This document shows, in pieces, positions 7,795-63,385 of a DNA stretch of 64,000 nt. Numbering within the stretch: the first letter of the stretch is position 1; each line of letters opens with the position of its first letter. Origin of the DNA: a virus (taxonomy: Duplodnaviria; Heunggongvirae; Uroviricota; Caudoviricetes); the IMG/VR virus record IMGVR_UViG_3300028549_001428; one strand, written 5' to 3'. The notes under the pieces were generated by a model. The model did not search any database. It was not told the DNA's origin and saw only the letters and a list, made by a program, of their open reading frames with translations. Position numbers and translations under genes: made by a program.

Positions 7795-8184
7795 TTAATA
7801 AAATTTAACCCAATAATTTGGAAATATAGGTGCAACAATCACACGATTTTCTCTATTTAATTTATAATCCCAACAAGTTATTTTGATCCAAAATGGTGTT
7901 GATGGATATTTCTTTTCTATATGCATCATCAACTGCGATTTATAATGATTACTTTCTTCGTATGTTATTATTTGCATACATATTATATCACCCATTGGAT
8001 GTTTATCATCTTTTACAAATAAGTGAGCCACATTGCTGTATTCTCTTACTAATCTATAATAATCTTTAGATGTTAATTGATGAAAATATACTACATCAGT
8101 TTGATGAATAGATTCAATCCATTTATCAAATACATTATTTATAGCAAATTCAAATACTTTATGCTTTATCCAAGTTCGAATCAT
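7795..8184 (-). CDS. hypothetical protein
   Basis: ORF in a packed block. Confidence 0.5.
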   Translation of the reverse strand: MIRTWIKHKVFEFAINNVFDKWIESIHQTDVVYFHQLTSKDYYRLVREYSNVAHLFVKDDKHPMGDIICMQIITYEESNHYKSQLMMHIEKKYPSTPFWIKITCWDYKLNRENRVIVAPIFPNYWVKFY

Positions 8185-15067: not shown

Positions 15068-16472
15068 GTGTATCAATTACCTTTTTAACTGATTTCGTGA
15101 GAGAAATCCCCTAAATCTTTAGTTTAGGGGATGAATCGAACAATACAAATATACAAAAATCTAAGAAAAAATAAAAATATTTCTTAGATTATATAAACTA
15201 ATACTATGAAACGGACTTATGAGTATAGGATATATCCACGTTCTGACCAGAAAGTGCTTCTATCGAAGCATTTTGGTAGTGTTCGTTGGATGTATAATTA
15301 TGCATTGGGACGTAAGATAGAACATTACAAACAGACAAGTAAGACACTTTCTAGATATGAAATACAGGCAGAAATACCAGCAATGAAGAAAACTGAATCA
15401 ACGGCTTGGTTGAAAGAAGTGAATTCCCAGTCATTACAGGCTGTTTTGTTGAACATAGAAACTGCATATACAAAGTTCTTCAGTAAATCGGGAGGATTCC
15501 CGAAATTTAAGAACAAGAAATCAAAACAGTCATTTGAAATACCTACTAATCTAGAAGTTGATTTCGATAGTGGAACTATCGAAATCCCGAAGTTCAAGGA
15601 ACCAATCAGGACTGTATTTCATCGCAAGTTTGTAGGTGAAATACGAACCTGTCATATCAAGCGTTCCGCTTCTGGTAAATATTATGTCACTATTCTAGTG
15701 GATGATGGTAAGGAATTACCAGTAAAACCAGAGATAACAAAAGAAACTGCTATTGGTATTGATGTAGGTATCAAGTCATTTATCGTCACCAGTGAAGGTG
15801 AAGAAATATCTAATCCAAGACACTTTGTTACATGCCAGCGTAGGCTGGTATCTGTTCAACGTTCATTTTCGAGAAAAATCAAATCGAAGAAGAAAGGTGA
15901 TCCTTTATCACTAAACGCTGAAAAAGTAAAATTGAAACTGCAATTGCTCCATGAGCAAGTTGCTAACCAACGTAAAGATTTCATTCATAAAGTCTCAACT
16001 CGACTGATACGTGAGAACCAAACTATCTGTATTGAAGACCTGAATGTTAAAGGAATGCTCAAGAACCGTAAGTTATCTAAACACATCCAAGATGCTGGAT
16101 GGGGAATGTTATTCCAACAACTTCGCTATAAAAGCGAATGGTATGGAACTAATATCCTAACCATAGGCAGGTTCGAGCCTAGCTCGAAAACCTGCTCTAA
16201 ATGTGGTTACATAAAACACGATCTTATATTGAAAGATAGAACCTGGACTTGTCCGATTTGTGGTGAATGCCACGATAGAGATGTCAACGCTTCTATCAAC
16301 ATTAGAGATTTCTCTTTTGTCACTATTGATAATAAAAATACTGGGTCAATTAGGAACACCCAGAAATTAAAGCCTGTAAAATATGGGACTTCGTTAGAAG
16401 CCAGTGCAGGAAAAGCATCCGTGAGGACGCTTGAAGCCCTTGAGTCTTTAGCTCAAGGGTAGTTCACTAATA
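15068..16472 (+). mobile_element. IS200/IS605-family tnpB-only element (family A, copy 2)
   Basis: Left-end block atttcgtgagagaaatcccctaaatctttagtttagggg (about 15085-15133) is shared with copy 7. The right-end hairpin cccttgagtctttagctcaaggg lies inside the last codons, followed by GGGTAGTTCAC. Confidence 0.7.
15206..16462 (+). CDS. tnpB: TnpB (IS605 OrfB) RNA-guided nuclease, family A
   Basis: About 75% aa identity to 11827..13083, with the same motifs; in inverted orientation relative to copy 1. Confidence 0.9.
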   Translation: MKRTYEYRIYPRSDQKVLLSKHFGSVRWMYNYALGRKIEHYKQTSKTLSRYEIQAEIPAMKKTESTAWLKEVNSQSLQAVLLNIETAYTKFFSKSGGFPKFKNKKSKQSFEIPTNLEVDFDSGTIEIPKFKEPIRTVFHRKFVGEIRTCHIKRSASGKYYVTILVDDGKELPVKPEITKETAIGIDVGIKSFIVTSEGEEISNPRHFVTCQRRLVSVQRSFSRKIKSKKKGDPLSLNAEKVKLKLQLLHEQVANQRKDFIHKVSTRLIRENQTICIEDLNVKGMLKNRKLSKHIQDAGWGMLFQQLRYKSEWYGTNILTIGRFEPSSKTCSKCGYIKHDLILKDRTWTCPICGECHDRDVNASINIRDFSFVTIDNKNTGSIRNTQKLKPVKYGTSLEASAGKASVRTLEALESLAQG

Positions 16473-21227: not shown

Positions 21228-21638
21228 TTATTTATTATGTTCTTTAAATAACCATACCTGGCTATATCTATCTTTCCACTCACTTATTACATCATAATCA
21301 TCTTCTAAATACGGATAGCCATGTCCACCATCAGCATACTCTATAACAAATTCATCAGGAAAATAACAAGATGGATCATCGTCACATATGAATGGTGTCA
21401 TGTACCAATCATAATGTTTTTGATCTTCGGGTATCTTCTCGATAGCTTGTTTCTGGCTATCGGTCAACTTCACACAATATTTGTTAATATCTTCTGGTTT
21501 AGAATTAGGGTCATATGCTGTTTTATAACCGTAATCTTCACCATACTTATTAGTCAGTGTGTAGTATTCCAATGCCTTGTCACGAATGATAAAGGAACTT
21601 GATGAACTATTTGATACAAATCCATTTCTTACTTTCAT
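21228..21638 (-). CDS. paralog family protein A (MKVRNGFVSNSSSSSFI N-terminal module)
   Basis: Shares its first 17 aa with 23038..23493, 23501..23986 and 23983..24441. Confidence 0.55.
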   Translation of the reverse strand: MKVRNGFVSNSSSSSFIIRDKALEYYTLTNKYGEDYGYKTAYDPNSKPEDINKYCVKLTDSQKQAIEKIPEDQKHYDWYMTPFICDDDPSCYFPDEFVIEYADGGHGYPYLEDDYDVISEWKDRYSQVWLFKEHNK

Positions 21639-21672
21639 TATCCATTTCTGCCTTATAAAAATACTACAATAA

Positions 21673-21682
21673 ATATAGCAAA
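21673..21682 (-). promoter_or_regulatory. extended -10 promoter TTTGCTATATT abutting the tnpB stop codon
   Basis: rc of atatagcaaa, starting 1 nt after the TnpB stop (21683-21685). Confidence 0.5.
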
Positions 21683-22969
21683 TTATAGTTGAAATGCCAA
21701 AGACAATTCAACTTTATTTCTCAGCGAGGCTACAAGAGCCTCGCTGTTCCATCGACCATCAGATGATCTAAGGAACGCTTCATCGACCGAAGTTATGTCA
21801 GAAATTGCTTTCTGACACAGAGCTACAATCTTCACGGACGTAAATTTCCCAGAGGCACTGGGTATTAATTCAAATAAGCCATAGGCTAATATGTTGATTG
21901 ATGCGTTGTGATCTCTATCAATTACACATCCACATTCTTCACATATATACTCTCTTTCATCAAGTCCAATGTGGTGCTTTAACGCACCACATTGAGAACA
22001 TAATTTGGATGAAGGAAAGAACCTATCAGCTTTAAGAACTATAGAACCTGATCGTTTGGATTTATAATCGGTCATTCTGACCAATTCACTCCACGAAGAA
22101 TCAGATATTGAACGAGCCAGCTTGTGGTTTTTAAGCATTCCTCGTATATTCAAATCTTCGAATACAATGATTGCATTTTCATTCACGATTTTTCGTGAAT
22201 ATTTATGTAAATGATCTTTTCGAATATTCGATATTCTAGCATGTTGTTTTGCTAGTTTCATTTTTGTTTTATTTCGTCTGATGCTTCCTTTGGAAGCACG
22301 AGATAATTTCTTTTGTAAGCGTACCAGCTTTTGTTGGTGCTTCTTCAATGGTCTAGGTGACTGCTCCTCATGACCATTACTCTCTACGGCAAATGTCTTT
22401 AATCCTAAATCAATACCTATAATCCCTGATTCGCTTTGGGTTATACCCAACGCATCAGGAATTTCATAATTAACAGAAACATAATATTTACCAGCAGTTC
22501 TAGAAATAGTATATGATAAAATCCTAACATGTTTCTTCTTGAATCTCAAGCCTTCGACTAACTTCACTCGTCCAACCAATGGAAGTTTTATATGATTGTT
22601 AGTGACATGAGCCTTATCATTACTCACATAAAATGAATCCCTACATTTACCTTTCTTCTTCTTTCTTGGAAACTTAAAGTGCGTATTTCCTGTCTTTTTC
22701 CCATTGAAATAATTTTTGAGAGCAATGGATAGATTAGCAAACGGTTGTTGATTTGCGTCCTTTGGACAATCATAAACCCATTTTGGCTTGCATTTATTCC
22801 ATTCTTTCTTCAAATCATTCATTGTCACTTTGGCTACGTCAAGTGACTTCTGTTCTTTCCATTTATTTAATGCCCAATTATAGGCATATCGAGATACACC
22901 AAAAGACTTGTTAAAAACCAACACCTGTTCAGGTGATGGATATAACAATATCTTTTGTCCCATTATCAT
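21683..22969 (-). CDS. tnpB: TnpB RNA-guided nuclease, family B
   Basis: RuvC-I GIDLGLKTF, RuvC-II VFEDLNI, zinc finger CSQCG...CEECG, RuvC-III DRDHNASINI. The GC-rich 3' region contains a cgaggctcttgtagcctcg hairpin. Length 428 aa. Confidence 0.9.
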   Translation of the reverse strand: MIMGQKILLYPSPEQVLVFNKSFGVSRYAYNWALNKWKEQKSLDVAKVTMNDLKKEWNKCKPKWVYDCPKDANQQPFANLSIALKNYFNGKKTGNTHFKFPRKKKKGKCRDSFYVSNDKAHVTNNHIKLPLVGRVKLVEGLRFKKKHVRILSYTISRTAGKYYVSVNYEIPDALGITQSESGIIGIDLGLKTFAVESNGHEEQSPRPLKKHQQKLVRLQKKLSRASKGSIRRNKTKMKLAKQHARISNIRKDHLHKYSRKIVNENAIIVFEDLNIRGMLKNHKLARSISDSSWSELVRMTDYKSKRSGSIVLKADRFFPSSKLCSQCGALKHHIGLDEREYICEECGCVIDRDHNASINILAYGLFELIPSASGKFTSVKIVALCQKAISDITSVDEAFLRSSDGRWNSEALVASLRNKVELSLAFQL

Positions 22970-22999
22970 CGTTATTTCAATACCACTTTAATAATGACA

Positions 23000-23037: not shown

Positions 23038-23493
23038 TTACCCGTTTCTCCCTGCATAATACGTTTGTTCAATTACTTCAATTCCATTGTATTCAACTGA
23101 TGATTGGTACAATTCAATATCATCTGAATTGAATCTATCTAGATCAATATCATAATTAAGATCCCAATCATCTTCACTGTTCATGAAATCTGAATCACAA
23201 TCTGGTCCAATGCCTGTCTTGAAAATAAACAAATCATCTGGATTGGTTTTTGCCGCATGTATAACTTCATTTTCAGAAATCATACAATCCATGAAGCCAC
23301 TAGTGATAGGTTTATTCCAACCACCATTCTCTTGCATTTCAAGTAGACTAGTTCCATTCATTATCTTGTATCTACTCGCATGTGGGAATGTAGCCATCCA
23401 CTTTTCAAACTTTTTGACATCTACAATTTTTCCATAGGTAGCAATGAAGCTACTGCTAGAACTATTTGATACAAATCCATTTCTAATTTTCAT
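23038..23493 (-). CDS. paralog family protein B (MKIRNGFVSNSSSSSFI)
   Basis: Conserved 17-aa N-terminus, divergent body. Confidence 0.55.
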   Translation of the reverse strand: MKIRNGFVSNSSSSSFIATYGKIVDVKKFEKWMATFPHASRYKIMNGTSLLEMQENGGWNKPITSGFMDCMISENEVIHAAKTNPDDLFIFKTGIGPDCDSDFMNSEDDWDLNYDIDLDRFNSDDIELYQSSVEYNGIEVIEQTYYAGRNG

Positions 23494-23500
23494 ATTTTCC

Positions 23501-23986
23501 TCAGTGGTGGCTTATGCGTTCATGTGATACATTTTCAAATATATCACTATGTTCCATAAAGTTTCCCCATGATCCATCGTTGTCACAATATTTTACAGTA
23601 AATACAAATTTACCTTTATACTTACTGATTACATCTTTCGCATATTGCTCTTGGTATTTATCAGATTCAACTTGATATCGATCCCAATCAATCATACCAT
23701 CAGCTTTTCGGAAATCATCGCAATCAGGAGCACCTTGAATCGAACCATTAAAAGCATCAGCAATCTTAGCAGTATCACTTGATAGATCATTGAATACAGC
23801 TTCGCTGATTTCTTTTATTGTATGATATTCAGTTCTATCCCATAAATCATACTCATGCAATGAATCTTCACTCATGTCTGGAAACAATATTGCCATAAGA
23901 TCATTAACATCAACTGGCTTATGATCTATTGCTACGATAAAGCTACTAGAGCTACTGTTTGATACAAATCCATGTCTTAATTTCAT
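23501..23986 (-). CDS. paralog family protein C (MKLRHGFVSNSSSSSFI)
   Basis: Conserved 17-aa N-terminus, divergent body. Confidence 0.55.
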   Translation of the reverse strand: MKLRHGFVSNSSSSSFIVAIDHKPVDVNDLMAILFPDMSEDSLHEYDLWDRTEYHTIKEISEAVFNDLSSDTAKIADAFNGSIQGAPDCDDFRKADGMIDWDRYQVESDKYQEQYAKDVISKYKGKFVFTVKYCDNDGSWGNFMEHSDIFENVSHERISHH

Positions 23987-24441
23987 AGTGTTCTCAAGTA
24001 AGTTAAGAAATCAGTGTATAGTGGGAATTTTGTTTTTAATTCCTGTAATAGCTGATCTGCTGTAATTGATAATGTTTTCAATACATATTCAACATATTCA
24101 TTATCATATACTTTCTTTCTGCGTTTGTTGACCTTTTTAATTTCTTCCATTACTTCTTCTAAAGTAAATGGAGTAGTTGCTAAAAAGAATCGCTTGATTT
24201 CAGGATATGATAAATCTTCATAACTACATATTGGGCATGATGTTTCAGGAACTTCATAACTTGATGTATTTGAATCATTATTAATCATGTGACTAGTACA
24301 AAATGTATGATCATTTACACAACGCACCATGTCATAGTCGGTAACGCTATTACCATCCCAACCTATTTCGGTACGATTGCATATTTCACATATGAAACTA
24401 CTGCTAGAACTATTGCTTACAAATCCGTTTCTAATCTTCAT
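23983..24441 (-). CDS. paralog family protein D (MKIRNGFVSNSSSSSFI) with Cys-rich region
   Basis: Conserved 17-aa N-terminus; CEIC...C..C cluster; SD gagg behind a TTTGCTATATT promoter. Confidence 0.55.
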   Translation of the reverse strand: MKIRNGFVSNSSSSSFICEICNRTEIGWDGNSVTDYDMVRCVNDHTFCTSHMINNDSNTSSYEVPETSCPICSYEDLSYPEIKRFFLATTPFTLEEVMEEIKKVNKRRKKVYDNEYVEYVLKTLSITADQLLQELKTKFPLYTDFLTYLRTL

Positions 24442-24480: not shown

Positions 24481-25302
24481 TTATATGGTATAAAGTGGAC
24501 AATTTCTATGTCCCTTCAATAAATTTTCACGGAATTGTTTTGTTCGTTCATGGTTCCAGATATCCTTAATAAAATCTTCACATGACAAAACATCCAATCC
24601 TTCTTTACCCCAAGCATCAGTATTAGGACTGAATGAGCATGGATGGAACACACCGAACACATCGATATATGTAGAGAACAGACTGGATTCACATGGTTCA
24701 GCCGACATTTCAAGAACTTTTCTGCGAATAGTGTCAACACCACCCAATGACTTGAGAAACTTCTGTGCACCACAAGAATCAAAGCCAAATGGAATGTTGG
24801 AATTAAGGCATAGGTTAGTTAATTCAGCAAACTCTTCATGAGAAAGCTGTGTAAACCCACGCTTACCTCTTCCCTTTGTCTTTAAAGATAAGAACACAAT
24901 TGCATTTAAATTTTTTAATCTAGGATCAGACTTAATATCAGCAATTGTTTCTAATGCTTGATTAAGAGTTTCTTTTGATATAAGCTGATGTAAATTTATT
25001 TGAGTCATTCCACGATCAGTCAATTTCTTAACTGAATCATAACAAATATCTTTATCTGAGTAACGTGAAATTGCTACTGCTCCACAATACTTAGCTAAGT
25101 TATCGGCAACCTCATCGGAAACATCAGCAACAGTAATGTTTGGGACAATACCTTTTTCACGAGTTGCTTCCATGATCTTCCAGATATCTGGATTCATTGT
25201 ACATGTGCTATCGGCACCTAATGCCACTTGTGTTAATTGGGTTATTTGAGTTTTCGTAATAGTTTTGATTTTCATAATTATTTTCCTTTTGTATAATCGC
25301 AA
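24481..25302 (-). CDS. radical-SAM/SPASM-like protein, C-terminal portion (lacks the Cys triad)
   Basis: Has a TIM-barrel-like stretch (IVPNITVADVSD...AIVFLSLKTKG) and a C-terminal Cys cluster (CGAQ...C.SS...HPCSF...C..C). The true start is probably the internal MKIKT, 2 nt after the HNH gene stop. Confidence 0.4.
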   Translation of the reverse strand: MRLYKRKIIMKIKTITKTQITQLTQVALGADSTCTMNPDIWKIMEATREKGIVPNITVADVSDEVADNLAKYCGAVAISRYSDKDICYDSVKKLTDRGMTQINLHQLISKETLNQALETIADIKSDPRLKNLNAIVFLSLKTKGRGKRGFTQLSHEEFAELTNLCLNSNIPFGFDSCGAQKFLKSLGGVDTIRRKVLEMSAEPCESSLFSTYIDVFGVFHPCSFSPNTDAWGKEGLDVLSCEDFIKDIWNHERTKQFRENLLKGHRNCPLYTI

Positions 25303-26402
25303 ATAAGTTTACACCAATATTTAAGTTCATTCTCGGTCAATGTCTGTTTTAATTTAGTGTTAATGTCACTATGTACCCATTGTATATTATCAATTGTATA
25401 TCCTGTTGATGAATCAATTCTATTTAATGATGCAGTATCTGCTTTATATTTAAATTCTATTGGAAGACCTGTAAGAGCACAGTATCCATTTTGTTCAATA
25501 TATTTATCCCACATATCATTTATAGTGATGTCAAAATTTAAATTTCTCTCACGAGCACCTCGTTGTATTGATTTAAATTTTGTGTTATTTATATTTTTAT
25601 ATCCCTTGAATGCATGATTTTGTTGAAATATATTTGTAGCATTATTTGGGACATTATTGTGAATAGGATTTACTAAGAGATTACATAAATATACAAATCT
25701 TTCTATAGACAAATCCATTTTCATTTTATTTATTGTTTTATGTATCCAGTGAACGTTGCCTTTTGTATATCCTCTAGTTGGATCAATTCTATCTAATGAG
25801 GCAGTTTTAGTGATTCTATCCAAGTGATTTGTATTGAATTCTAATTTAAGTCCACTTAATGTGCATGTGCTATTTTGTAAAATATACTGTTCCCATACAT
25901 CATTTATTGTTACATCAAATTCGAGTCCTCGTTTATTTGCATTACTTTTTATAGAATGAAATATATGAGCCGATAATTCACCACATCCTTTCCACATATA
26001 ATTCTTATTACCTGAATCATATTGATATTTTAAACACCCACATGAACCAGTATGGTTTTTAAGATTCATTATAGAACACGTAAATATATTACCACAAAAA
26101 CATTTAACAGTAACCATACAACTATAACACCCACGCCATTCATGTGGTTTGCTTATTATATCCAAATTCTTTGTTTCTTTTAATGTCTGAATAATGGCTG
26201 ACATTTTGTTATTTCGCTTTATACATCCACATGGGTTGGTATTTGGTAATATCTTACGAAGTGATTTTGTAAATATATTACCACAATAACATTCACATGT
26301 TATTTTATCTCTTTCATTACCGTTCCAATCAGATAATAATTTTATATTTTTAGTTTCATTCAACAGAATACGTAATGAATCTACAGTGGGTATTGATCGC
26401 AT
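25278..26402 (-). CDS. HNH homing-endonuclease-like protein with duplicated zinc-finger + HNH modules
   Basis: Two CxCxC...CGC zinc-finger units and two HNH-like units (SLDRIDPTRGYTKGNVHWIH...N and SLNRIDSSTGYTIDNIQWVH...N). Confidence 0.7.
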   Translation of the reverse strand: MRSIPTVDSLRILLNETKNIKLLSDWNGNERDKITCECYCGNIFTKSLRKILPNTNPCGCIKRNNKMSAIIQTLKETKNLDIISKPHEWRGCYSCMVTVKCFCGNIFTCSIMNLKNHTGSCGCLKYQYDSGNKNYMWKGCGELSAHIFHSIKSNANKRGLEFDVTINDVWEQYILQNSTCTLSGLKLEFNTNHLDRITKTASLDRIDPTRGYTKGNVHWIHKTINKMKMDLSIERFVYLCNLLVNPIHNNVPNNATNIFQQNHAFKGYKNINNTKFKSIQRGARERNLNFDITINDMWDKYIEQNGYCALTGLPIEFKYKADTASLNRIDSSTGYTIDNIQWVHSDINTKLKQTLTENELKYWCKLICDYTKGK

Positions 26403-29737: not shown

Positions 29738-30859
29738 TTAATCCTTTATATTTGATAGTATATGTGCAATTACATCGACTGTCCAACCATTTCCACACAT
29801 TCGATATCTCTGGGTATTACTTACAACACTTGAATAATTATCAGGTATTGTTTGTAGACGTTCACATTCTAATGGGGTAATATATCTGAAACAGAATTCA
29901 TCTACAGGTATTCTATCGGGTTTAGTAAATGGAACCACAACATTATCTTTACCAACAGTAGTCAAGCAATTAGTTTTCCCATCATATCTAAATTCGATAA
30001 ATTGTGTTGTATTACCAGCCGTTTTCATTTTACCGTCCATACGCTTACCATCAACAATATATCTGCCTCTCATAGCAGCTACTGCCTGTGTATCGGTAGG
30101 AATATCAACAATCCCAAAGAATCTTTGATTTGAATATTTTTTAGAATGTGATGCTTCTATCATTTGCATCTTATCAGAATCTTTGTGTACAGTAAGAACT
30201 TTATTTTTCAAGCGTGAATTTTCTGCTAACCAATGTAATGCAGCTTCTGTATAATAATATGATTCACCATTGACACCAGATTCCTTCACATCACCCCATA
30301 CGATGCCTCTGTCCTCTGGTTGAGTCACATTTGGTATGTTGGTCCAATACAATCTTTTTCTATTCTGTGCGGAAAGGAGCGCACTATTTATCATGATAGG
30401 TTCAACACCTAATGTTTTTGTAATAACAGCTTCCCACTTCTTATGCATCACTACATTTTCTAACAGGAAATATTTAGGTTTCGTTTCTGATAATAGTCTA
30501 ACATATTCCCAGAATAAATATGACTGCCCTTCAAATTGGAATCCCTCATTTTTCAATTCTAAATATCGTTCTAATGTAATAACTTCTTCGCCACATTTAG
30601 TAGACATTCCCTTTTGTAGTCCAGCGAACGAAAAGGATTGACATGGCGACCCACCAATAAGCAAATCAATATTAGGTAACTTATCAGCAGTTACATCTAC
30701 AACACTACCCAACTGAATTGTATTTGGGTAATTATGCATAGTAACTTTAATTGCGTGCTTATCTATTTCACTAGCATAATAGTTATCAACGTTGATACCT
30801 GCTCGGTTCAACGCAATATGACCACAACTCATTCCATCAAATAATGACAATACATTCAT
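29738..30859 (-). CDS. DNA (cytosine-5)-methyltransferase
   Basis: Motif I LSLFDGMSCG, motif IV GSPCQSFSFAG, ENV motif; 373 aa. Confidence 0.9.
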   Translation of the reverse strand: MNVLSLFDGMSCGHIALNRAGINVDNYYASEIDKHAIKVTMHNYPNTIQLGSVVDVTADKLPNIDLLIGGSPCQSFSFAGLQKGMSTKCGEEVITLERYLELKNEGFQFEGQSYLFWEYVRLLSETKPKYFLLENVVMHKKWEAVITKTLGVEPIMINSALLSAQNRKRLYWTNIPNVTQPEDRGIVWGDVKESGVNGESYYYTEAALHWLAENSRLKNKVLTVHKDSDKMQMIEASHSKKYSNQRFFGIVDIPTDTQAVAAMRGRYIVDGKRMDGKMKTAGNTTQFIEFRYDGKTNCLTTVGKDNVVVPFTKPDRIPVDEFCFRYITPLECERLQTIPDNYSSVVSNTQRYRMCGNGWTVDVIAHILSNIKD

Positions 30860-45027: not shown

Positions 45028-46149
45028 ATGATAATGATGAAGACATATAAATACAAGTTGTACAATCGAGATGCTTTGAAGCATCTTGATCGTATAGTTG
45101 ATTTGTCTTCATGGATATATAATCACTGTATAGCTTTACATCGTAGATATTATAGATTGTTCAAGAAACATTTAAATAAGTATCAGTTGCAGAAGCACCT
45201 GACGAAGCTGAAGCGAACTGAAAGGTTCGTTTCATGGAAGGAAGTACCCAGCCAAGCAATACAGGATATAACAGATAGAATAGATCGTTCCTATTTGATG
45301 TTCTATAAGAACATCAAATTGAAGAAGAAAAGCTCACCGCCTCACTTCCAGAAGAAAGTGAATTATCTGAGTTTCACTACGAAACAGGCAGGATTCAAGT
45401 TATTGGAAGGAGACAAGATCCGCATAGCGGATCATGTCTTCCCATACTGGAACTCACGTCCTGTCAATGGAACTATAAAGACTCTAACCGTTAAAAGAAC
45501 TACTCGTGGATATTATATTTATCTAGTGGTAGAGGAAGAAGCAAACATATCGAAGCCAGTTACATCAGGTAAAAGCGTGGGCTTTGATTTTGGTATGAAG
45601 AAATTCCTTGTTGCCTCAGATGGAAATGATGTCACTATGCCATTGTTCCTCAAGAAGTCACTGAAAAAGTTGCGCCTTTTGACGCAAAAGTTTAGTAAAT
45701 CTAGAGGAAAGTTTGGCTCACGTAAGTCACTGTCCAAACTACATGAAAAGGTTTCAAATCAACGAAATGATATGCATTGGAAGTTAGCCCATAGGCTGAC
45801 TTCCACCTATGATTTTATTATATTTGAAACTCTTGATCTTCTTGGTATGTATAAAGCTTGTCAGAAGAAAATCATGGACTTCGGATTCGCCTCATTCTTA
45901 TCCATTCTCGAATATGTTGCGAAACAAAAAGGAAAAATAGTCCACTACGTGGATAAATATTTCCCTTCTTCACAACTATGTTTCGATTGTGGATACCAAA
46001 ATGCAGAAATTAAAGATACTAAAATTCGTGAATGGATATGTCCTCAATGTGGTTCTGTTCATGATAGAGATCAGAACGCTGCTAATAACATTGAAAGAGA
46101 AGGGACTTCTTCTCTAAATACTTGCGCCACTGGCGTAATATGTATTTGA
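45028..46149 (+). CDS. tnpB: TnpB RNA-guided nuclease, family C
   Basis: YKYKLYN N-terminus, RuvC-I VGFDFGMKKF, RuvC-II IIFETLDL, zinc finger CFDCG...CPQCG, RuvC-III HDRDQNAANNI. Length 373 aa. Confidence 0.85.
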   Translation: MIMMKTYKYKLYNRDALKHLDRIVDLSSWIYNHCIALHRRYYRLFKKHLNKYQLQKHLTKLKRTERFVSWKEVPSQAIQDITDRIDRSYLMFYKNIKLKKKSSPPHFQKKVNYLSFTTKQAGFKLLEGDKIRIADHVFPYWNSRPVNGTIKTLTVKRTTRGYYIYLVVEEEANISKPVTSGKSVGFDFGMKKFLVASDGNDVTMPLFLKKSLKKLRLLTQKFSKSRGKFGSRKSLSKLHEKVSNQRNDMHWKLAHRLTSTYDFIIFETLDLLGMYKACQKKIMDFGFASFLSILEYVAKQKGKIVHYVDKYFPSSQLCFDCGYQNAEIKDTKIREWICPQCGSVHDRDQNAANNIEREGTSSLNTCATGVICI

Positions 46150-46665: not shown

Positions 46666-46917
46666 ATGATGTCAAGCTATTTAAAATATATTATATGCAT
46701 GGAAGTAACCAAAGTACAATCAAATAAACCAGCAGATTCCAAATCTAGTTTTTCTAGTTTGGAACTCGAAAAGGCAAAACAGGATTTGAAATCAAATCCT
46801 TGCCTTGGCGTTGATGTATTTGTATATAATGGTGTCCCTAATTATGTTAGAGAACGCAACGAAAAACTGAATGAGTTATATAACCAAGCTCAAAAAAGTC
46901 TAGATTTATACGCTTAA
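46666..46917 (+). CDS. hypothetical protein
   Basis: ORF in a packed block. Confidence 0.4.
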   Translation: MMSSYLKYIICMEVTKVQSNKPADSKSSFSSLELEKAKQDLKSNPCLGVDVFVYNGVPNYVRERNEKLNELYNQAQKSLDLYA

Positions 46918-47180
46918 CGTGGAAAATCTTTGTAATATACTTTAGCATATAATTTACCTCCATGTCGGCTAACAAATTCTCTCATATATCTAGATATGTA
47001 ATTACCTACTATAATTCCAAATGATGACTTGGTTATTGGTACAATTACATTGAATACTTTCTCATGCACCTTCATATTCAATGGAGTCAAGCATCTTTTT
47101 TTAGATGGCAATCCGTTATTAATATCATCAATGGTTCTACCTAAATTGTTTGCATTTGGCGTGCCGATAGGTGTAATCAT
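46914..47180 (-). CDS. hypothetical protein
   Basis: ORF with SD aaggacag downstream of a canonical promoter. Confidence 0.45.
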   Translation of the reverse strand: MITPIGTPNANNLGRTIDDINNGLPSKKRCLTPLNMKVHEKVFNVIVPITKSSFGIIVGNYISRYMREFVSRHGGKLYAKVYYKDFPR

Positions 47181-47202
47181 TTTACTGTCCTTAGTGATTC
47201 AT

Positions 47203-47231
47203 TCAAATTAGCAATATAGTAATTGCATTGC
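47203..47231 (-). promoter_or_regulatory. sigma70-type promoter TTGACA-N17-TATATT
   Basis: rc of aatata-N17-tgtcaa; the spacer contains the palindrome ttgcattgcaa. Confidence 0.55.
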
Positions 47232-47321
47232 AATTTGTCAATATCCTATTGACGAATTTAAAAATATTTTTCTGAGTCATTTTTATAAACTAATAATATA
47301 TCACTTTTATATCAGGATAAT

Positions 47322-47480
47322 ATGCCAAAAACAAAGATAGACACAATCGGAATTTATATACGAATGTCAGAAGTATTAGTAGAGAAAATGGATTCGGTAG
47401 CATTGGAACGAGGATTCAGTCGTTCTGAATATATCCGTTACTTGATCCAGAATGCAATAGAAAAGGAAGAGAGTAAGTAA
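47322..47480 (+). CDS. ribbon-helix-helix (CopG/Arc-like) DNA-binding protein immediately upstream of tnpB
   Basis: 52 aa. The beta-strand IGIYIRMSEVL and helices ...SRSEYIRYLIQNAIEKE are typical of the RHH fold. SD aggataat; the stop is 2 nt before the tnpB ATG. Confidence 0.55.
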   Translation: MPKTKIDTIGIYIRMSEVLVEKMDSVALERGFSRSEYIRYLIQNAIEKEESK

Positions 47481-47482
47481 TT

Positions 47483-48769
47483 ATGTTAATGGGTCAGAAG
47501 ATATTGTTGTATCTATCGCCTGAACAGGCGTTGGTTTTTAACAAGTCTTTTGGCGTATCCCGATATGCCTATAACTGGGCATTAAGTAAATGGAAAGAAC
47601 ATAAATCACTTGGCGTAGCCAAAGTGACAATGAATGATTTGAAGAAAGAATGGAATAAATGTAAGCCAGAATGGGTTTATGATTGTCCAAAGGACGCTAA
47701 TCAACAACCATTTGCTGATTTATCCACTGCATTAAAGAATTATTTTACATCAAAGAAAGCGGGGAATAAGCATTTTAAGTTTCCAAGAAAGAAGAAACGA
47801 GGAAAATGTAAAGATTCTTTCTATGTGAGTAACGATAAGGCTCATATAACTAACAATCATATTAAATTGCCTTTAATTGGTAAAGTGAAGTTAGCCGAAG
47901 GCTTGAGATTCAAGAAGAAACATGTTAGGATTTTATCATATACTATTTCTAGAACTGCTGGTAAATATTATGTTTCTGTTAATTATGAAATTCCTGATGC
48001 GTTGGGTGTAACCCAAAGCGGATCAGGAATAGTAGGAATAGATTTAGGATTAAAGACATTTGCCGTAGAGAGTAATGGACATGAGGAGCAATCACCTAGA
48101 CCATTGAAGAAGCACCAACAAAAGCTGGTACGCTTACAAAAGAAATTATCTCGTGCTTCCAAGGGAAGCATCAGACGAACTAAAACGAAAATGAAACTAG
48201 CAAAACAACATGCTAGGATTTCAAATATTCGAAAAGATCATTTGCATAAATATTCACGAAAGATCGTGAACGAAAATGCAATTATTGTTTTCGAAGATTT
48301 GAATATACGAGGAATGCTTAAAAACCACAAGCTGGCTCGTTCAATATCTGATTCTTCTTGGAGTGAATTGGTCAGAATGACCGATTACAAATCCAAACGA
48401 TCAGGTTCTATAGTCTTAAAAGCTGATAGGTTCTTTCCTTCATCTAAATTATGTTCACAATGTGGTGCGTTAAAGCACCACATTGGACTTGATGAAAGAG
48501 AGTATATATGTGAACAATGCGGATGTGTGATTGATCGAGATCACAATGCATCAATCAACATTCTAGCCTATGGCTTATTTCAATTAATACCCAGTGCCTC
48601 TGGGAAATTTACGTCCGTGAAGATTGTAGCTCTGTGTCAGAAAGCAATTTCTGACATAACTTCGGTCGATGAAGCGTTCCTTAGATCATCTGATGGTCGA
48701 TGGAACAGCGAGGCTCTTGTAGCCTCGTTGAGAAATCAAGTTGTTTTGTCATTGACAGAACTTCCATAA
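47483..48769 (+). CDS. tnpB: TnpB RNA-guided nuclease, family B
   Basis: About 93% aa identity to 21683..22969, in inverted orientation; all RuvC and zinc-finger motifs are intact. Confidence 0.9.
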   Translation: MLMGQKILLYLSPEQALVFNKSFGVSRYAYNWALSKWKEHKSLGVAKVTMNDLKKEWNKCKPEWVYDCPKDANQQPFADLSTALKNYFTSKKAGNKHFKFPRKKKRGKCKDSFYVSNDKAHITNNHIKLPLIGKVKLAEGLRFKKKHVRILSYTISRTAGKYYVSVNYEIPDALGVTQSGSGIVGIDLGLKTFAVESNGHEEQSPRPLKKHQQKLVRLQKKLSRASKGSIRRTKTKMKLAKQHARISNIRKDHLHKYSRKIVNENAIIVFEDLNIRGMLKNHKLARSISDSSWSELVRMTDYKSKRSGSIVLKADRFFPSSKLCSQCGALKHHIGLDEREYICEQCGCVIDRDHNASINILAYGLFQLIPSASGKFTSVKIVALCQKAISDITSVDEAFLRSSDGRWNSEALVASLRNQVVLSLTELP

Positions 48770-48809
48770 AATACTATATTAGTGTGATGAACACTTTTAT
48801 TCATATTTT

Positions 48810-49436
48810 ATGAGGCAGATTATGATGGCTAAATATAGTGAATTAGACCCTGAATTCATACGCAGATATTTTGATTTGCTTGCAAAGCATGGACGTGAAA
48901 CCGATAAGAAGTATTCTAACAACAGATGCGGAAAGGAAATGTTTGTTGCTAGAACCATGAGAAAATGGCTTAAAAATAAGTGTTTTGTAGTCATTCAGAA
49001 AGATCCCACTGGTGCATACGCAACAACCAACGTCAATGATGTGAGTGCGTATTATGAAGTGCGCATTCCTAAAAAACATTTTATCCAAATAACTGGATGT
49101 TCTTATCAATTAGGATATGGCGAAAAAATTGATATATATGTAGATGATGTATCTATTAGCAAAGCATTCAATTCTACTGGATTATCATATAATGATTTCC
49201 TACGTCTGCAATTCAGAGAAATTACAGAAGAAGAATTTGATTCAGTTCGTTCTTTATTTCTTGATGATCGTGATGAAAACGAATACACAATGCTTGCCTA
49301 CAACCGAGATAAGATAATCGGCAAAGGTAAGAAAGCAAAATATGAAGAAGTTCACGTCAAGGTAATGGGCAAGGATTACCGTGAAGCCAGAGAAAAGGCT
49401 GTTGAACAATATCCAAACATGGTAATCTACGGATAA
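48810..49436 (+). CDS. hypothetical protein
   Basis: 208-aa ORF. Confidence 0.5.
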   Translation: MRQIMMAKYSELDPEFIRRYFDLLAKHGRETDKKYSNNRCGKEMFVARTMRKWLKNKCFVVIQKDPTGAYATTNVNDVSAYYEVRIPKKHFIQITGCSYQLGYGEKIDIYVDDVSISKAFNSTGLSYNDFLRLQFREITEEEFDSVRSLFLDDRDENEYTMLAYNRDKIIGKGKKAKYEEVHVKVMGKDYREAREKAVEQYPNMVIYG

Positions 49437-51321: not shown

Positions 51322-51501
51322 GATGGAACGTATGAAAGTAGTTAGAGTAACAAAAGAAGAATATGAGTTGGATGACGGAACAATCATCACTCACGTAAGC
51401 AAGTTGGACGAAGTTCCAACCATTGAAGAATTCCAAGCCTATCTAGATGAATGGTACGACAAGATCGTTCCTCGCTACGAGGAACGCAATGAAGGATAAG
51501 T
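51322..51501 (+). CDS. small hypothetical protein overlapping the IS607 left end
   Basis: 59-aa ORF (MERMKVVRVTKEEYELDD...); below the track threshold. Confidence 0.3.
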
Positions 51502-52151
51502 TAATATCTATAACCGAAGCCTGTAAAATCCTCGATGTAAGCAAGGATACCATGAGACGTTGGGATAAAAATGAAACATTCAAACCAACGAAAACCGAAG
51601 GTAAGCATCGTAAGTATCTTCTGTCCGAAGTGTACAAGAAAGCTGGTATCGTTACTGATGTAGATGGTACTCCAATCAGCGTAGTAAGCGATACAGATGT
51701 TGCTGTGTATTGCAGAGTGTCATCACATGACCAGAAGCAGAAAGGCGACCTAGAGCGTCAGAAAGCCCGTGTAATGCAACACTGCGTTGATAAGGGATAT
51801 AAGATCATTGAAACATTTGATGAAACTGGGTCTGGTATGAATGATAACAGACCGAAGTTACATAAAATGATTCAACTCGCTATCAGCGGTAAAGTGAAGA
51901 AAATCATAGTTGAACACTCTGATCGTCTTACCAGATTCAATTATAAGTTGATTGAACTATTGTTCACCAGTCATGGTGTCAAGGTTGAATGCATAGAAGA
52001 AGTTCTTGGTAAAACATTCGAGGATGAACTGGTCAAGGACATGCTTACATTGATGGCATCATTCAGTGCCAAGATTTATGGTAAGCGCAGTCACCAGAAC
52101 AGAAAGAAGAAAGATGCGGAAGTTACACCAGAGGTCGTAGCAACCACATGA
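51489..52151 (+). CDS. tnpA: IS607-type serine recombinase with N-terminal MerR-like HTH
   Basis: HTH LISITEACKILDVSKDTMRRWDK; catalytic region VAVYCRVSSHDQKQKGDLERQ...DETGSG...DRLTRF. The likely start is MKDKL; the track ORF begins further upstream. Confidence 0.85.
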   Translation: MKDKLISITEACKILDVSKDTMRRWDKNETFKPTKTEGKHRKYLLSEVYKKAGIVTDVDGTPISVVSDTDVAVYCRVSSHDQKQKGDLERQKARVMQHCVDKGYKIIETFDETGSGMNDNRPKLHKMIQLAISGKVKKIIVEHSDRLTRFNYKLIELLFTSHGVKVECIEEVLGKTFEDELVKDMLTLMASFSAKIYGKRSHQNRKKKDAEVTPEVVATT

Positions 52152-53488
52152 TCCGTATGCGTAGTCACAGGATTGAGTTGAGACTTAATCAGGAACAGAG
52201 AAGCCTTTGCGCCAGAAGCGCAGGTACTTCTCGCTACGCATATAATTGGATGTTAGATAAATTAACTGGTGAGTACGAAGCCAATAAAGCACTCGCTACC
52301 ATGTATGGATTATCCAAGGTTCCATCTACGATGGGAACTGCTATGGACTGGCATAAGGAATGGAACAAGTTAAAGAAAGTTGATGGATTCAACTGGATCT
52401 ATGAAACCAGTAAATGTTGTGGTCAAGAAGCACTTCGTGACCTACAGGTTGCATACAATAAATTATTCAAGAAATTGGGTGGATACCCAAAGAAGAAAAA
52501 GAAAGGTGTGAATGATTCATTCCGTCTTACTGGTGCTATCAGAGTAGGTTATGACTGGGTTCAAATTCCCGGTATCGGTATAGTTAAACTGAAAGAAAAA
52601 GGATATGTAGTTTGTAAGGATGAACAGATTGATCTACCACAAATAACAGTATCTCGTCAGGCAGATCATTGGTTTGTGTCATTCTTATTGCGTGAAGAAG
52701 TAGCGGAAGTAACCAAGGCAACATGGGATGAAATCACCGATGATGAATATGATGTGATCGGTGTCGATCTTGGTATCAAGGATCTGGCTATCACCAGTTA
52801 CGGTGAAACATTTCATAACCCAAGAGCATACAAACAAAAGATTCAACGATTGAAACGCTATCAGCGTTCAGTTAGTAGAAAGAAGAAAGGATCAAATAAC
52901 AAGAAGAAGGCGATATTAAAACTCTCTCGTCTTCATAAGCAGGTTGCTGATATCCGCAATGACGCTACACATAAAATGACTACATCGGTGGTGAAAATCA
53001 AACCGAAGGTGTTAGTTATTGAGAGTTTGAAACCAAAGAACATGAGTAAGAATAGAAAGTTAGCTGGATCGATACTTGATGCTTCCTTCGGGAAGATCAA
53101 AGTACAGTTCCAGTATAAATCAGAATGGAATGGTATTAGATTGGTGATGGCACCAACATTCTATGCATCATCCAAGTTCTGTTCATCATGTGGATATAAG
53201 AAAGAAGATTTAAAACTAGAAGATAGATACTGGGTATGTCCTGTCTGCGGTGAACATCATGATCGTGATGTCAACGCATCCAGAAACCTACGTTTCTTCG
53301 GACTCTGGTTAATGGATTTATTGCCCGTGAGTTCCACGGGTATTGCCTGTTCGATTGATGAATGTCAGTCGAATGCTGTTGGTGACTTGTCACCGAAGTA
53401 TAGAGATGGGAGGTTACAGTTCTTCATTGAACAGTGCCTATCGATGAAGCAGGAATTCAAAAATGCGGAATTTGCACCATGTGCATAG
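52148..53488 (+). CDS. tnpB: TnpB RNA-guided nuclease (IS607-associated)
   Basis: RuvC-I GVDLGIKDLA, RuvC-II VIESLKP, zinc finger CSSCG...CPVCG, RuvC-III HDRDVNASRNL. The GC-rich 3' end contains ggtgacttgtcacc and tgcaccatgtgca hairpins. Length 446 aa. Confidence 0.9.
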   Translation: MIRMRSHRIELRLNQEQRSLCARSAGTSRYAYNWMLDKLTGEYEANKALATMYGLSKVPSTMGTAMDWHKEWNKLKKVDGFNWIYETSKCCGQEALRDLQVAYNKLFKKLGGYPKKKKKGVNDSFRLTGAIRVGYDWVQIPGIGIVKLKEKGYVVCKDEQIDLPQITVSRQADHWFVSFLLREEVAEVTKATWDEITDDEYDVIGVDLGIKDLAITSYGETFHNPRAYKQKIQRLKRYQRSVSRKKKGSNNKKKAILKLSRLHKQVADIRNDATHKMTTSVVKIKPKVLVIESLKPKNMSKNRKLAGSILDASFGKIKVQFQYKSEWNGIRLVMAPTFYASSKFCSSCGYKKEDLKLEDRYWVCPVCGEHHDRDVNASRNLRFFGLWLMDLLPVSSTGIACSIDECQSNAVGDLSPKYRDGRLQFFIEQCLSMKQEFKNAEFAPCA

Positions 53489-61944: not shown

Positions 61945-63385
61945 TCATACCTCAACGGATTTCGTGAGAGGAATCCCCTGAATCTTTAGTTCGGGGAGTA
62001 ATCGAGAAAATTATTTCACCAAAATGAAAAAATAATTAATTAGTTGAACAAAAAATAGTATATATTATAGATATGAGAATACAGATAATCACATCGAAGC
62101 TGAAATTGCTTCATACAAAAGAGCAATCCGATAGACTTGCCTCTTTGTGTCGTGATTATAAGGATGCTTTGAATTTTGCCAGTCAGAAAGCCTTTGAATT
62201 GAAGAAGACGAGTAGTGCTTCTGTGATACAGAAAGCCACATATGAATTGATTCGAGAGAAGTGGAATGGCATTCCATCCACAATGGTTTGTGGAATTGCC
62301 AAACAAGTTGGATCAACTTACAAAACCCTGTGGACGAGAGCCAAACAACACAAATCTCATAGAGCAAAGGGATGGACTAAGAAGCGATATAAGGGACTGG
62401 ACAAAGCACCGAAATTCGGTGCTTTGACATCAACATTATATTATGGTAAAGATTTCTCATGGTCTAAAGACCAAACATTGTCCGTAGCCACTCTTGGTGG
62501 TAGAATCAAATTGGGTTATTCTGGATGGAATAAACATCTTGAATATATTAAATCAGGAGCACGATGTGGAGCATCCAAACTCTGGTATGATAAAACATCT
62601 AAGCAATGGTATCTTTTAGTTTCTATCGAGATAGAAAAACAAGATATAGATCCAAGTAAAATAGGTATCGTAAAGGGAGTTGATGTAGGTCAGCGAGAAC
62701 TCGCTGTTTCGTCATCAAACAACAATAAGAGAAAGTTTTTTCACGGTGGAATCGTGAAACAAAAATGCAGAGAGTTCAGTAAAGTAAGAAGTGGTTTACA
62801 AGAAAAAGGCACTCGTAGTGCAAGTAGAGTCTTAACGAGACTCGCAATGCGAGAGAGACGGTTTAGAACAGATGTAAATCACAAGATCAGTCATGGATTG
62901 ATGGAATCAAATATCATCATCGGTATGGAAGATTTGAAAGATATAAAAGTGAGAACCATGTCACGCAGAAAGCGTGGAAAGTTCGCATCAGATAAACAAC
63001 GACAAGCCAACAAAGAATCAAGCTCTTGGAGCTACGGTGAATTACAAGCATTCGTTGGGTATAAAGTGTTCTTTCATGATTCTCTGATGTTGAAAATTGA
63101 TCCTCATTATACATCCAAAATGTGTAATAAATGTGGACATGTCTCGGATAATAATAGACCCAATGGGTCATTGATTTTTCGATGCGAAGCATGTCATCAT
63201 ACTATCCATTCTGATCTGAATGCAGGTAATAATATAAAAGATAAAACAATTGTGATGCGACATGATCTCATCACAATGGGGCAATTGTCTTCTGTCCCTG
63301 AAGTGTCTAACGATGATCGCTGTGAAACAGCAGGAGTTATGATACAAATCCCCGAATCTTTGATTCAGGGGTAGTTGGCTTAGTG
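61945..63385 (+). mobile_element. IS200/IS605-family tnpB-only element (family A-like, copy 7)
   Basis: Left-end block atttcgtgagaggaatcccctgaatctttagttcgggga is shared with copy 2. The right-end hairpin ccccgaatctttgattcagggg lies in the last codons, followed by GTAGTT. Confidence 0.7.
62073..63374 (+). CDS. tnpB: TnpB RNA-guided nuclease, family A-like
   Basis: RuvC-I GVDVGQRELA, RuvC-II GMEDLKD, zinc finger CNKCG...CEACH, RuvC-III HSDLNAGNNI; C-terminal IPESLIQG as in family A. Length 433 aa. Confidence 0.9.
   Translation: MRIQIITSKLKLLHTKEQSDRLASLCRDYKDALNFASQKAFELKKTSSASVIQKATYELIREKWNGIPSTMVCGIAKQVGSTYKTLWTRAKQHKSHRAKGWTKKRYKGLDKAPKFGALTSTLYYGKDFSWSKDQTLSVATLGGRIKLGYSGWNKHLEYIKSGARCGASKLWYDKTSKQWYLLVSIEIEKQDIDPSKIGIVKGVDVGQRELAVSSSNNNKRKFFHGGIVKQKCREFSKVRSGLQEKGTRSASRVLTRLAMRERRFRTDVNHKISHGLMESNIIIGMEDLKDIKVRTMSRRKRGKFASDKQRQANKESSSWSYGELQAFVGYKVFFHDSLMLKIDPHYTSKMCNKCGHVSDNNRPNGSLIFRCEACHHTIHSDLNAGNNIKDKTIVMRHDLITMGQLSSVPEVSNDDRCETAGVMIQIPESLIQG

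Follow-up and report, generated by a model that had tools for sequence, protein, structure and literature searches.

In 2023, Zedaveinyte et al. (bioRxiv 10.1101/2023.11.20.567912) reported Arc-like ribbon-helix-helix (RHH) genes inside TnpB elements of the IS605 and IS607 families and inside IStrons. In chromatin immunoprecipitation sequencing (ChIP-seq), the native transposon promoter was bound by the Arc homologues that IS605-family elements encode, and Arc represses a tnpB-promoter reporter; mutations in the beta-strand or in the operator relieve this repression, and the set studied includes elements that carry arc and tnpB only (Moon et al., bioRxiv 10.64898/2026.09.24.754181). CvkR, as cited in the same work, is a small transposon-encoded repressor of a Cas12/TnpB-family gene (Moon et al., bioRxiv 10.64898/2026.09.24.754181). 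In archaea, a clade of RHH/MazE-TnpB pairs has been described (Altae-Tran et al., PNAS 2023, PMC10691335). In this study, we analyzed a 64-kb stretch of DNA (64,000 nucleotides (nt); hereafter the window) from an uncultured large phage of the Caudoviricetes (IMG/VR record IMGVR_UViG_3300028549_001428), in which a gene for a 52-amino-acid (aa) RHH protein directly precedes a tnpB gene (copy A). A second copy of the same tnpB (copy B) lacks the RHH gene. We propose, with moderate confidence, that the RHH protein is an autorepressor of the RHH-tnpB operon and that its gene belongs, as an integral accessory, to an IS607-like TnpB element that is non-autonomous.

The unit in the window resembles the published Arc-TnpB elements in layout. 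Both have a stand-alone RHH gene of about 50 aa (the published criterion is <200 aa) in the element beside tnpB, a canonical TnpB, a 3' omegaRNA, and a conserved promoter-proximal leader, and in both the RHH gene is easily missed by annotation. The window gene is co-directional with tnpB and lies 2 nt upstream, whereas many published arc genes are divergent across a bidirectional promoter; the published host is a Clostridial chromosome rather than a phage. The window RHH family is tiny (nine clusters) and is likened to the published genes by layout. With the archaeal pairs, the window unit shares a small RHH gene directly upstream of tnpB and a long 3' region with room for a guide RNA. The archaeal clade has a rearranged RuvC-III (D to H), is non-mobile, and has been interpreted as a toxin-antitoxin system, whereas the triad in the window is canonical, many contexts harbour the unit, and tnpB also persists where the RHH gene is missing. 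CvkR differs from the window RHH protein both in fold (MerR) and in element (Tn7-like).

Because Arc-like TnpB partners were reported in 2023 and functionally characterized in 2026, the locus is not a new kind of system, and it opens no new question because the repressor role of Arc has already been shown in bacterial IS605-family elements. It is modestly new in its phage setting, its orphan RHH family, its co-directional abutting gene in the tnpA slot, and its natural variant series. A phage-borne, sequence-orphan example is added to the class of transposon-encoded Arc-like TnpB regulators. Related tnpB/omegaRNA units with an RHH gene, a serine recombinase, or nothing in the same slot form a natural comparison, by which the effect of the RHH protein on nuclease expression and on element persistence in viral genomes could be tested. 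For genome editing, a 52-aa cognate repressor together with the leader would provide this TnpB with an off-switch already at hand.

The RHH open reading frame (ORF) starts with ATG and ends with TAA at 47478-47480, and TT alone separates this stop codon from the tnpB ATG at 47483 (Table 1). The sequence-only reading had placed the end of a 52-aa ORF 2 nt before tnpB, and its coordinates are exact. In relatives, the two genes are separated by 1 or 4 nt or overlap in ATGA. A purine-rich GAGAG is located 9 nt before the tnpB ATG and is embedded in conserved ...EKEESK codons. The 2-nt gap suggests translational coupling of the two genes, and since tnpB starts 2 nt past the RHH stop, both proteins would come from one message. 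For copy A TnpB, the Pfam models HTH_OrfB_IS605, OrfB_IS605, and Cas12f1-like_TNB each score above their cut-off, and the NCBIfam subfamily 'guided_TnpB' is matched with 284 bits. The RuvC residues of the protein (D187/E271/D353) are canonical, the C4 zinc finger (C324/C327/C343/C346) is intact, and both sets are invariant in 19 relatives; the RuvC-III motif DRDHNAS is also intact. Copy A TnpB is canonical and apparently active. A megablast search of the region against cultured phages gave no match.

The 52-aa protein was assigned by several weak matches. Pfam RHH_5 matched with 20.8 bits (E = 3.3e-4), below its gathering cut-off of 26, and RHH_1 with 17.8 bits (E = 3.2e-3), below its gathering cut-off of 20.5; the homologue at locus L183 has a precomputed weak RHH_1 match. 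Matches to NCBIfam aCcr1 (E = 3e-6) and to a PHROG 'transcriptional repressor' family (E = 7e-6) were obtained, and further NCBIfam matches were to VapB, RelB-like, and NikR families. When a profile of seven homologues was searched against the PDB, only RHH proteins stood at the top of the list; none of the Pfam and PDB matches reached a curated threshold. The top matches were 3h87_C (E = 3.5e-4), EndoAI, NikR, and a CopG-family regulator, with alignments spanning the G-x-S-R-S/T-E-Y-I-R loop and a helix. The entry 3h87_C is labelled 'Putative uncharacterized protein' in the PDB output; we take it to be the VapB5 RHH antitoxin chain.

An AlphaFold2 model of the 52-aa protein, built on a five-sequence alignment, had a predicted local distance difference test (pLDDT) score of 91. 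Both helices and the G31-F-S-R-S-E loop have pLDDT >90 in the model and can be laid over those of Arc, CopG, and MazE. The top Foldseek matches were nearly all RHH proteins (MatP, Arc, CopG, MazE, NikA, and AmrZ), with template modelling (TM) scores of 0.55-0.70 and root-mean-square deviations of 0.6-0.8 Å over about 31-33 residues; with so small a protein, these matches do not reach nominal significance. In the monomer model, residues 5-16 form a helix rather than a beta-strand; hence, the N-terminal strand is taken from family alignments. An RHH strand pairs only in the dimer, and a strand-less monomer model is unsurprising. The putative DNA-facing residues of the strand are T8, G10, Y12, and R14, and the full loop motif is G31-F-S-R-S-E-Y-I-R39. 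The beta-alpha-alpha sequence pattern, the G-x-S/T-x-x-E loop, and the length are those of P22 Arc, CopG, and the NikR N-terminal domain (~45-55 aa), to which the protein has no significant pairwise identity and which are known as classical repressors that autoregulate their own operons. Each line of evidence is weak, and all agree that the ORF encodes an Arc/CopG-type RHH protein. The sequence-only reading had described an RHH signature of one strand and two helices and had proposed a profile search to check it: the class is supported by concordant profiles and by helices and loop in the model, but the strand is drawn as a helix, and the profile matches, RHH throughout, remain below gathering scores.

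The five RHH homologues compared differ mostly at synonymous sites, with ratios of nonsynonymous to synonymous substitution rates (dN/dS) of 0.06-0.23 and synonymous divergence (dS) up to 1.3. Because their differences are mainly synonymous, the RHH ORF is translated and constrained and is no chance ORF.

The RHH gene is linked to one clade of tnpB. A single-sequence search of 5.8 billion metagenome proteins found one RHH cluster, and a profile search of the same proteins found nine homologous clusters. Loci were inspected for five of the nine, and in all five the RHH gene is directly upstream of a tnpB of the same clade, at a 1-4 nt gap or with an ATGA overlap. The neighbouring TnpBs have 427-428 aa and are 78-87% identical to the window TnpB. 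A single-protein scan of IMG/VR gave no relatives, and tblastn of the RHH protein against phages gave only matches with E > 0.1, to archaeal-virus RHH ORFs. A 365-kb contig is a further recorded source of the RHH sequence.

The RHH-tnpB unit occurs in at least eight unrelated flanking contexts (Table 1), and many contigs break inside tnpB, as expected of a repeated element. Since the leader and the RHH gene travel with tnpB across these contexts, the RHH gene is part of the mobile unit and not of the phage neighbourhood, and the conserved pairing supports the RHH protein as a dedicated partner of this tnpB lineage. A survey of relatives had been suggested in the sequence-only reading, which named two refuting outcomes; the upstream RHH gene proved conserved beside related tnpB genes, and the changing contexts speak against its belonging to a phage gene module. 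No RHH homologue free of tnpB was found among the loci inspected. The sole contig with an RHH gene and without an intact tnpB, L184, keeps a remnant of about 100 nt of the tnpB 5' end; because of this remnant, it is a deletion derivative rather than an empty site, and the candidate that L184 is an empty site with RHH as the target-site gene was ruled out. L184 (3001-3300) has its upstream flank in common with L185 (3001-4447), which carries the RHH gene and an intact tnpB; the L185 downstream flank is not covered. In L184, the tnpB 5' end is fused to a 140-aa ORF, so that the contig represents a tnpB deletion of natural origin or else a chimera assembled at a repeat.

Table 1. Features of the two tnpB copies in the window and flanking contexts of the RHH-tnpB unit.
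Feature	Position	Strand	Basis or description
Leader / left end of RHH-tnpB unit	47261..47321	+	start of homology among units in other flanking contexts
RHH (Arc/CopG-like) gene, 52 aa	47322..47480	+	profile and structure matches, dN/dS, nine homologous clusters
Copy A tnpB, 428 aa; last ~63 codons overlap the guide-RNA scaffold	47483..48769	+	Pfam, NCBIfam, invariant residues
Copy A omegaRNA-like scaffold / right end	48585..48819	+	alignment of relatives from other contexts; consensus fold
Predicted guide, first ~20 nt of 3' flank, TTATGATGGCTAAATATAGT	48820..48839	+	scaffold-end position
Copy B tnpB, 428 aa, without RHH gene or leader	21683..22969	-	93% identical to copy A
Copy B omegaRNA-like scaffold / right end; end motif TTTTATAAGGCAGA	21647..21867	-	alignment, fold
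Flanking context, window			divergent 88-aa gene
Flanking context, L005-L011			CmpB-like membrane protein
Flanking context, L002/L003			GC-rich repeat region
Flanking context, L004 and contig j15WzptE			92/174-aa gene
Flanking context, L176/L177			356-aa gene and NAD-ligase
Flanking context, L178/L179			DHFR and asparaginase
Flanking context, L183			203-aa gene
Flanking context, L185-L189			RNA-ligase cluster

The next gene upstream of copy B ends 68 nt before the ATG, and none of the frames there holds an RHH ORF. The similarity between copies A and B fades within about 8 nt 5' of the tnpB ATG. Both observations bear out the sequence-only reading, which had noted the missing ORF and the divergence at the start codon. 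That reading had left open whether the RHH gene was acquired by one copy or lost from the other. The question was addressed with a neighbour-joining distance tree of the TnpB clade, whose sequences are closely related and possibly recombining. RHH-bearing elements form the two deepest TnpB branches (P0015 and P0014) and are spread throughout the tree, and the RHH-less copies (copy B with P0006, P0007, and P0010) are nested among them. Because of this nesting, copy B probably lost the leader and the RHH gene; the most likely, parsimonious reading of the tree is at least two such losses. Loss is favoured, and acquisition by copy A is disfavoured. The identities of the two proteins are not fully congruent: P0011 is 86% identical to the window sequence in TnpB and 67% in RHH. 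In the coding core, copies A and B differ with a dN/dS of 0.10 and a dS of 0.35. Since copy B is under purifying selection, TnpB functions without the RHH protein; the RHH-less copies have also spread to different sites.

Copy B tnpB is inserted between two of a series of tandem paralogues (21228-21638, 23038-23493, 23501-23986, and 23983-24441, all on the minus strand), all of which start with MK(I/V/L)R(N/H)GFVSNSSSSSF.

The RHH-bearing clade also encloses P0016, a TnpB of 77% identity. A 201-aa protein with MerR_1 and Resolvase domains, an IS607-type serine-recombinase TnpA, is encoded 22 nt upstream of its tnpB, and the RHH gene fills the slot held by tnpA in P0016. Because this nearest autonomous relative carries a serine recombinase, the element family is IS607-like rather than IS200/IS605 with a Y1 transposase. 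The right end is occupied by tnpB and the omegaRNA, as in the IS607 family. The serine-recombinase TnpA (MerR-like helix-turn-helix plus resolvase), present in P0016 only, is absent from the window element, which is thus without a transposase of its own and has a ragged or truncated left boundary. Its gene content suggests at best a non-autonomous IS607 derivative, or an immobilised unit.

More distant relatives (32-52% identity; 155 loci in IMG/VR and JGI metagenomes) have Y1 transposases or serine recombinases upstream of tnpB. A batch Pfam scan gave three RHH_3 matches in all (best E = 9e-18). At L112 (1896-2063) and L136 (372-539), a 55-aa ORF (MKRLNVYVTEQQDAFLKE...SELLRRIVDEY) overlaps the start of a 39%-identical tnpB; these two ORFs probably account for the RHH_3 matches. 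The 55-aa ORF had no detectable similarity to the window RHH protein, and by sequence it looks like an independent RHH-TnpB pairing. Because distant relatives mostly carry other upstream genes, the RHH-TnpB pairing is sporadic and has probably arisen more than once. The sequence-only reading had called the arrangement foreign to the standard IS200/IS605 layout. It is indeed non-canonical, but it is not unprecedented in view of the 2023 reports, and the family is IS607-like. Because IStrons are where Arc-like ORFs were originally noticed, a group I intron or IStron context was considered; it was rejected, as an Rfam search had no match at gathering thresholds across the whole window and, for 46900-49100, no meaningful one even at E ≤ 1.

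The RHH units have in common a leader of 30-80 nt. A conserved box, TTATAAACTA, is shared across contexts and occupies 47283-47292 in the window, and an AGGA Shine-Dalgarno sequence (47314-47317) precedes the RHH ATG by 4 nt. In full copies (L004, L005, L183, and L178), a palindrome of 12-13 bp and a T-run stand directly before the TTATAAACTA box, with predicted folding energies (dG) of -14 to -18 kcal/mol and z of -5 to -7. The window leader keeps the right arm, TCTGAGTCA (47271-47279), and the T-run, lacks the left arm, and does not fold (dG -2.4); L176 likewise has no left arm, and L002 retains still less. Depending on the context, the first homologous position is about -80, -57, -51, or -30, counted from the RHH ATG. 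Because the window copy and L176 keep the right arm only and L002 less, the left boundary is ragged. The leader motif is unique within the window. That the flanking motifs are generic phage intergenic signals was ruled out, since, within the window, the leader and right-end motifs are found at these elements and nowhere else. TGASTCA was also tried as a repeated operator half-site and was uninformative (5 in the window against 10 expected, 1 near the element).

The left ends form a nested series, from full palindrome through half palindrome and -30 to no RHH gene, and the right end is precise. The RHH-bearing left ends compared were those of the window (47261-47321), L002 (~430-467), L004 (~290-371), L005 (~7915-8000), L176 (~2280-2337), and L183 (~735-818), and the RHH-less ones were window 22970-22980 (minus strand), L172 (~2488-2500), and L175 (~1700-1723). 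Nested left ends are unlike those that a transposase would make. The series suggests either progressive 5' erosion or copying that started from the right end.

At the 3' side, a segment of about 235 nt is common to all relatives, with or without the RHH gene, and homology ends after its last position. Its consensus fold comprises 65 pairs, compensatory double changes are seen at 23 of these, and covarying hairpins are located at 48740-48761 and 48781-48795. The segment ends in ...GAGGCAGA (48819); the window has the terminal motif TTTTATGAGGCAGA (48806-48819) behind copies A and B and at no other place. Between the copies, the dN/dS is 0.10 for codons 1-365 and about 1 for codons 366-428, which overlap the scaffold. 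The features of an OMEGA system are thus present: a RuvC D-E-D triad, a zinc finger, and a structured scaffold that overlaps the tnpB 3' end and runs to the element boundary. In the established TnpB/omegaRNA architecture, the guide directly follows the scaffold. The guide would hence be the next ~20 nt past the scaffold end, a segment that overlaps the start of the downstream phage gene. A variable stretch of about 37 nt before the tnpB stop was considered as the guide and ruled out, as it is a hairpin with compensatory changes after which conserved sequence resumes.

In copy B, the second scaffold hairpin is deleted. The scaffolds of copy A (48583-48730) and copy B (21722-21869, minus strand) are identical over about 150-160 nt despite the coding-core dS of 0.35, and relatives in other genomes differ in the same stretch by compensatory changes. 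This identity could reflect intragenomic gene conversion or very strong constraint at the RNA level. Right ends were compared for window copy A, window 21640-21662 (minus strand), L002, L172, L175, L176, L178, L180, and L183. The ATG of a downstream phage gene lies about 4-12 nt past the right end in nearly every context, with L180 and L183 as exceptions, and the right end at 48752-48825 contains an outward-facing sigma-70-like promoter match (TTGACA-17-TATATT, 11/12). The element seems to provide the downstream gene with a GAGG ribosome-binding site and perhaps with a promoter.

The autorepressor reading builds on the fold class, linkage, selection, leader, and copy-B-lineage loss obtained from the analysis, and takes binding and repression by analogy from the Arc homologues studied by Moon et al. 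(bioRxiv 10.64898/2026.09.24.754181). The element is read 5' to 3' as leader, RHH gene, tnpB, and omegaRNA scaffold with the right end. An RHH dimer would bind an operator in the element's own leader or promoter and repress transcription of the RHH-tnpB operon, and this negative feedback loop would set the nuclease level. Copy B and several relatives, having lost the leader and the RHH gene, retain just tnpB with the omegaRNA and would depend on read-through from upstream phage genes. Several observations weigh against this reading. A simple scan of the leader (47261-47321) gave no sigma-70-type promoter, and solely the conserved TTATAAACTA box points to a leader promoter. The outer arms of the palindrome vary with compensatory changes despite identical predicted DNA-contact residues: TGACTCAGA is the window/L005 type and TGCCACAGA that of L183, and both types have T8/G10/Y12/R14 in the RHH protein. 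Because the arms covary freely and the left arm is absent altogether from the window copy, as also from L176, the palindrome, although the most obvious operator candidate, is doubtful as an operator. This pattern would suit an RNA or single-stranded DNA hairpin, such as a terminator or insulator, at least as well as a protein site. Published elements often have arc divergent from tnpB, whereas the window RHH gene is co-directional and immediately upstream.

Alternatively, the RHH protein may act like an antitoxin, as a direct inhibitor or partner that binds TnpB or the RNA-DNA duplex channel, so that the pair would be an addiction module in the phage. On the basis of AlphaFold co-folding, Altae-Tran et al. 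(2023, PMC10691335) put forward such a role for the RHH/MazE-TnpB pairs of archaea. The tight operon here resembles the antitoxin-toxin gene order, and the best sequence matches of the RHH protein are antitoxins (3h87_C and EndoAI; NCBIfam VapB and RelB-like). The RHH antitoxins VapB, RelB, and ParD grip their toxins by a C-terminal tail, whereas both sequence and model of the 52-aa protein give a bare RHH domain without one. RHH-less tnpB is common in the clade, and the dN/dS of copy B is low, so the nuclease needs no antidote; the D-to-H change of the archaeal RuvC-III is absent, with DRDHNAS intact and D353 invariant. We give this role a small chance. It is also improbable that the RHH protein is a transposition factor that binds the element end, marking the left end for a serine recombinase acting in trans or controlling excision. 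The position of the palindrome at the extreme left end, the RHH gene in the tnpA slot of the closest autonomous relative nested inside the RHH clade, and a serine-recombinase tnpA (51447..52151) 2.7 kb downstream in the window would fit this role. An imprecise left boundary is unlike site-specific recombination at a defined end, however, RHH-less copies have spread to different sites too, and the tnpA in the window goes with a tnpB just 34% identical.

Small RHH regulators are very common in phages, as the PHROG matches illustrate, and the ORF could be an ordinary phage regulator that stands beside tnpB by chance, or a site into which the element preferably inserts. In RHH-less elements, the start is about 8 nt upstream of the tnpB ATG, right past the position of the RHH stop, and L184 has an RHH gene without an intact tnpB. 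This explanation is very unlikely, given that the leader and the RHH gene accompany tnpB into the unrelated neighbourhoods described above, that the leader motif occurs once in the window, and that no tnpB-free RHH homologue was found among the loci inspected, L184 being a deletion derivative. A further, speculative possibility, to which we assign a low probability, goes beyond autorepression: in this phage lineage, the RHH cassette might have replaced the serine recombinase and made a self-regulated, transposase-free 'homing' TnpB that propagates by break-primed copying from the right end instead of canonical transposition. In a cell without the RHH protein, TnpB would be expressed from the leader in a burst and cut the empty alleles of co-infecting phages, and the accumulating RHH protein would then shut the nuclease off. 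The fixed, precise right end beside nested, ragged left ends hints at this possibility. If true, right-end copying would be a new mode of propagation for OMEGA elements in viruses.

The window contains at least seven tnpB genes: 11827-13083 (-), 15206-16462 (+), 21683-22969 (-), 45028-46149 (+), 47483-48769 (+), 52148-53488 (+), and 62073-63374 (+). Five of them were compared and fall into three distinct families, with about 33% identity between families. A complete IS607-type pair is formed by TnpA (51447-52151, +; PHROG transposase, E = 2e-51) and, with a 4-nt overlap, the tnpB at 52148-53488 (+), whose 446-aa product belongs to a different family and is 34% identical to copy A TnpB; in principle, this TnpA could supply a recombinase in trans. 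The regions upstream of two other tnpB genes (~15100-15205, +, and 61970-62072, +) share a motif, translated as ...EKSPKSLV.G... and ...EESPESLVRG..., which is probably the common left end of another element family. A 339-aa RRXRR-domain protein is encoded at 5129-6148 (-) (Pfam, E = 6e-35). The load of RNA-guided-nuclease elements in the window is unusually dense for a phage genome. The window also encodes an HNH/endonuclease VII-like protein at 25278-26402 (-), which matches the PHROG families 'Srd anti-sigma factor' and 'decoy of host sigma70' as well, and a C-5 cytosine DNA methyltransferase at 29738-30859 (-) (Pfam, E = 5e-42).

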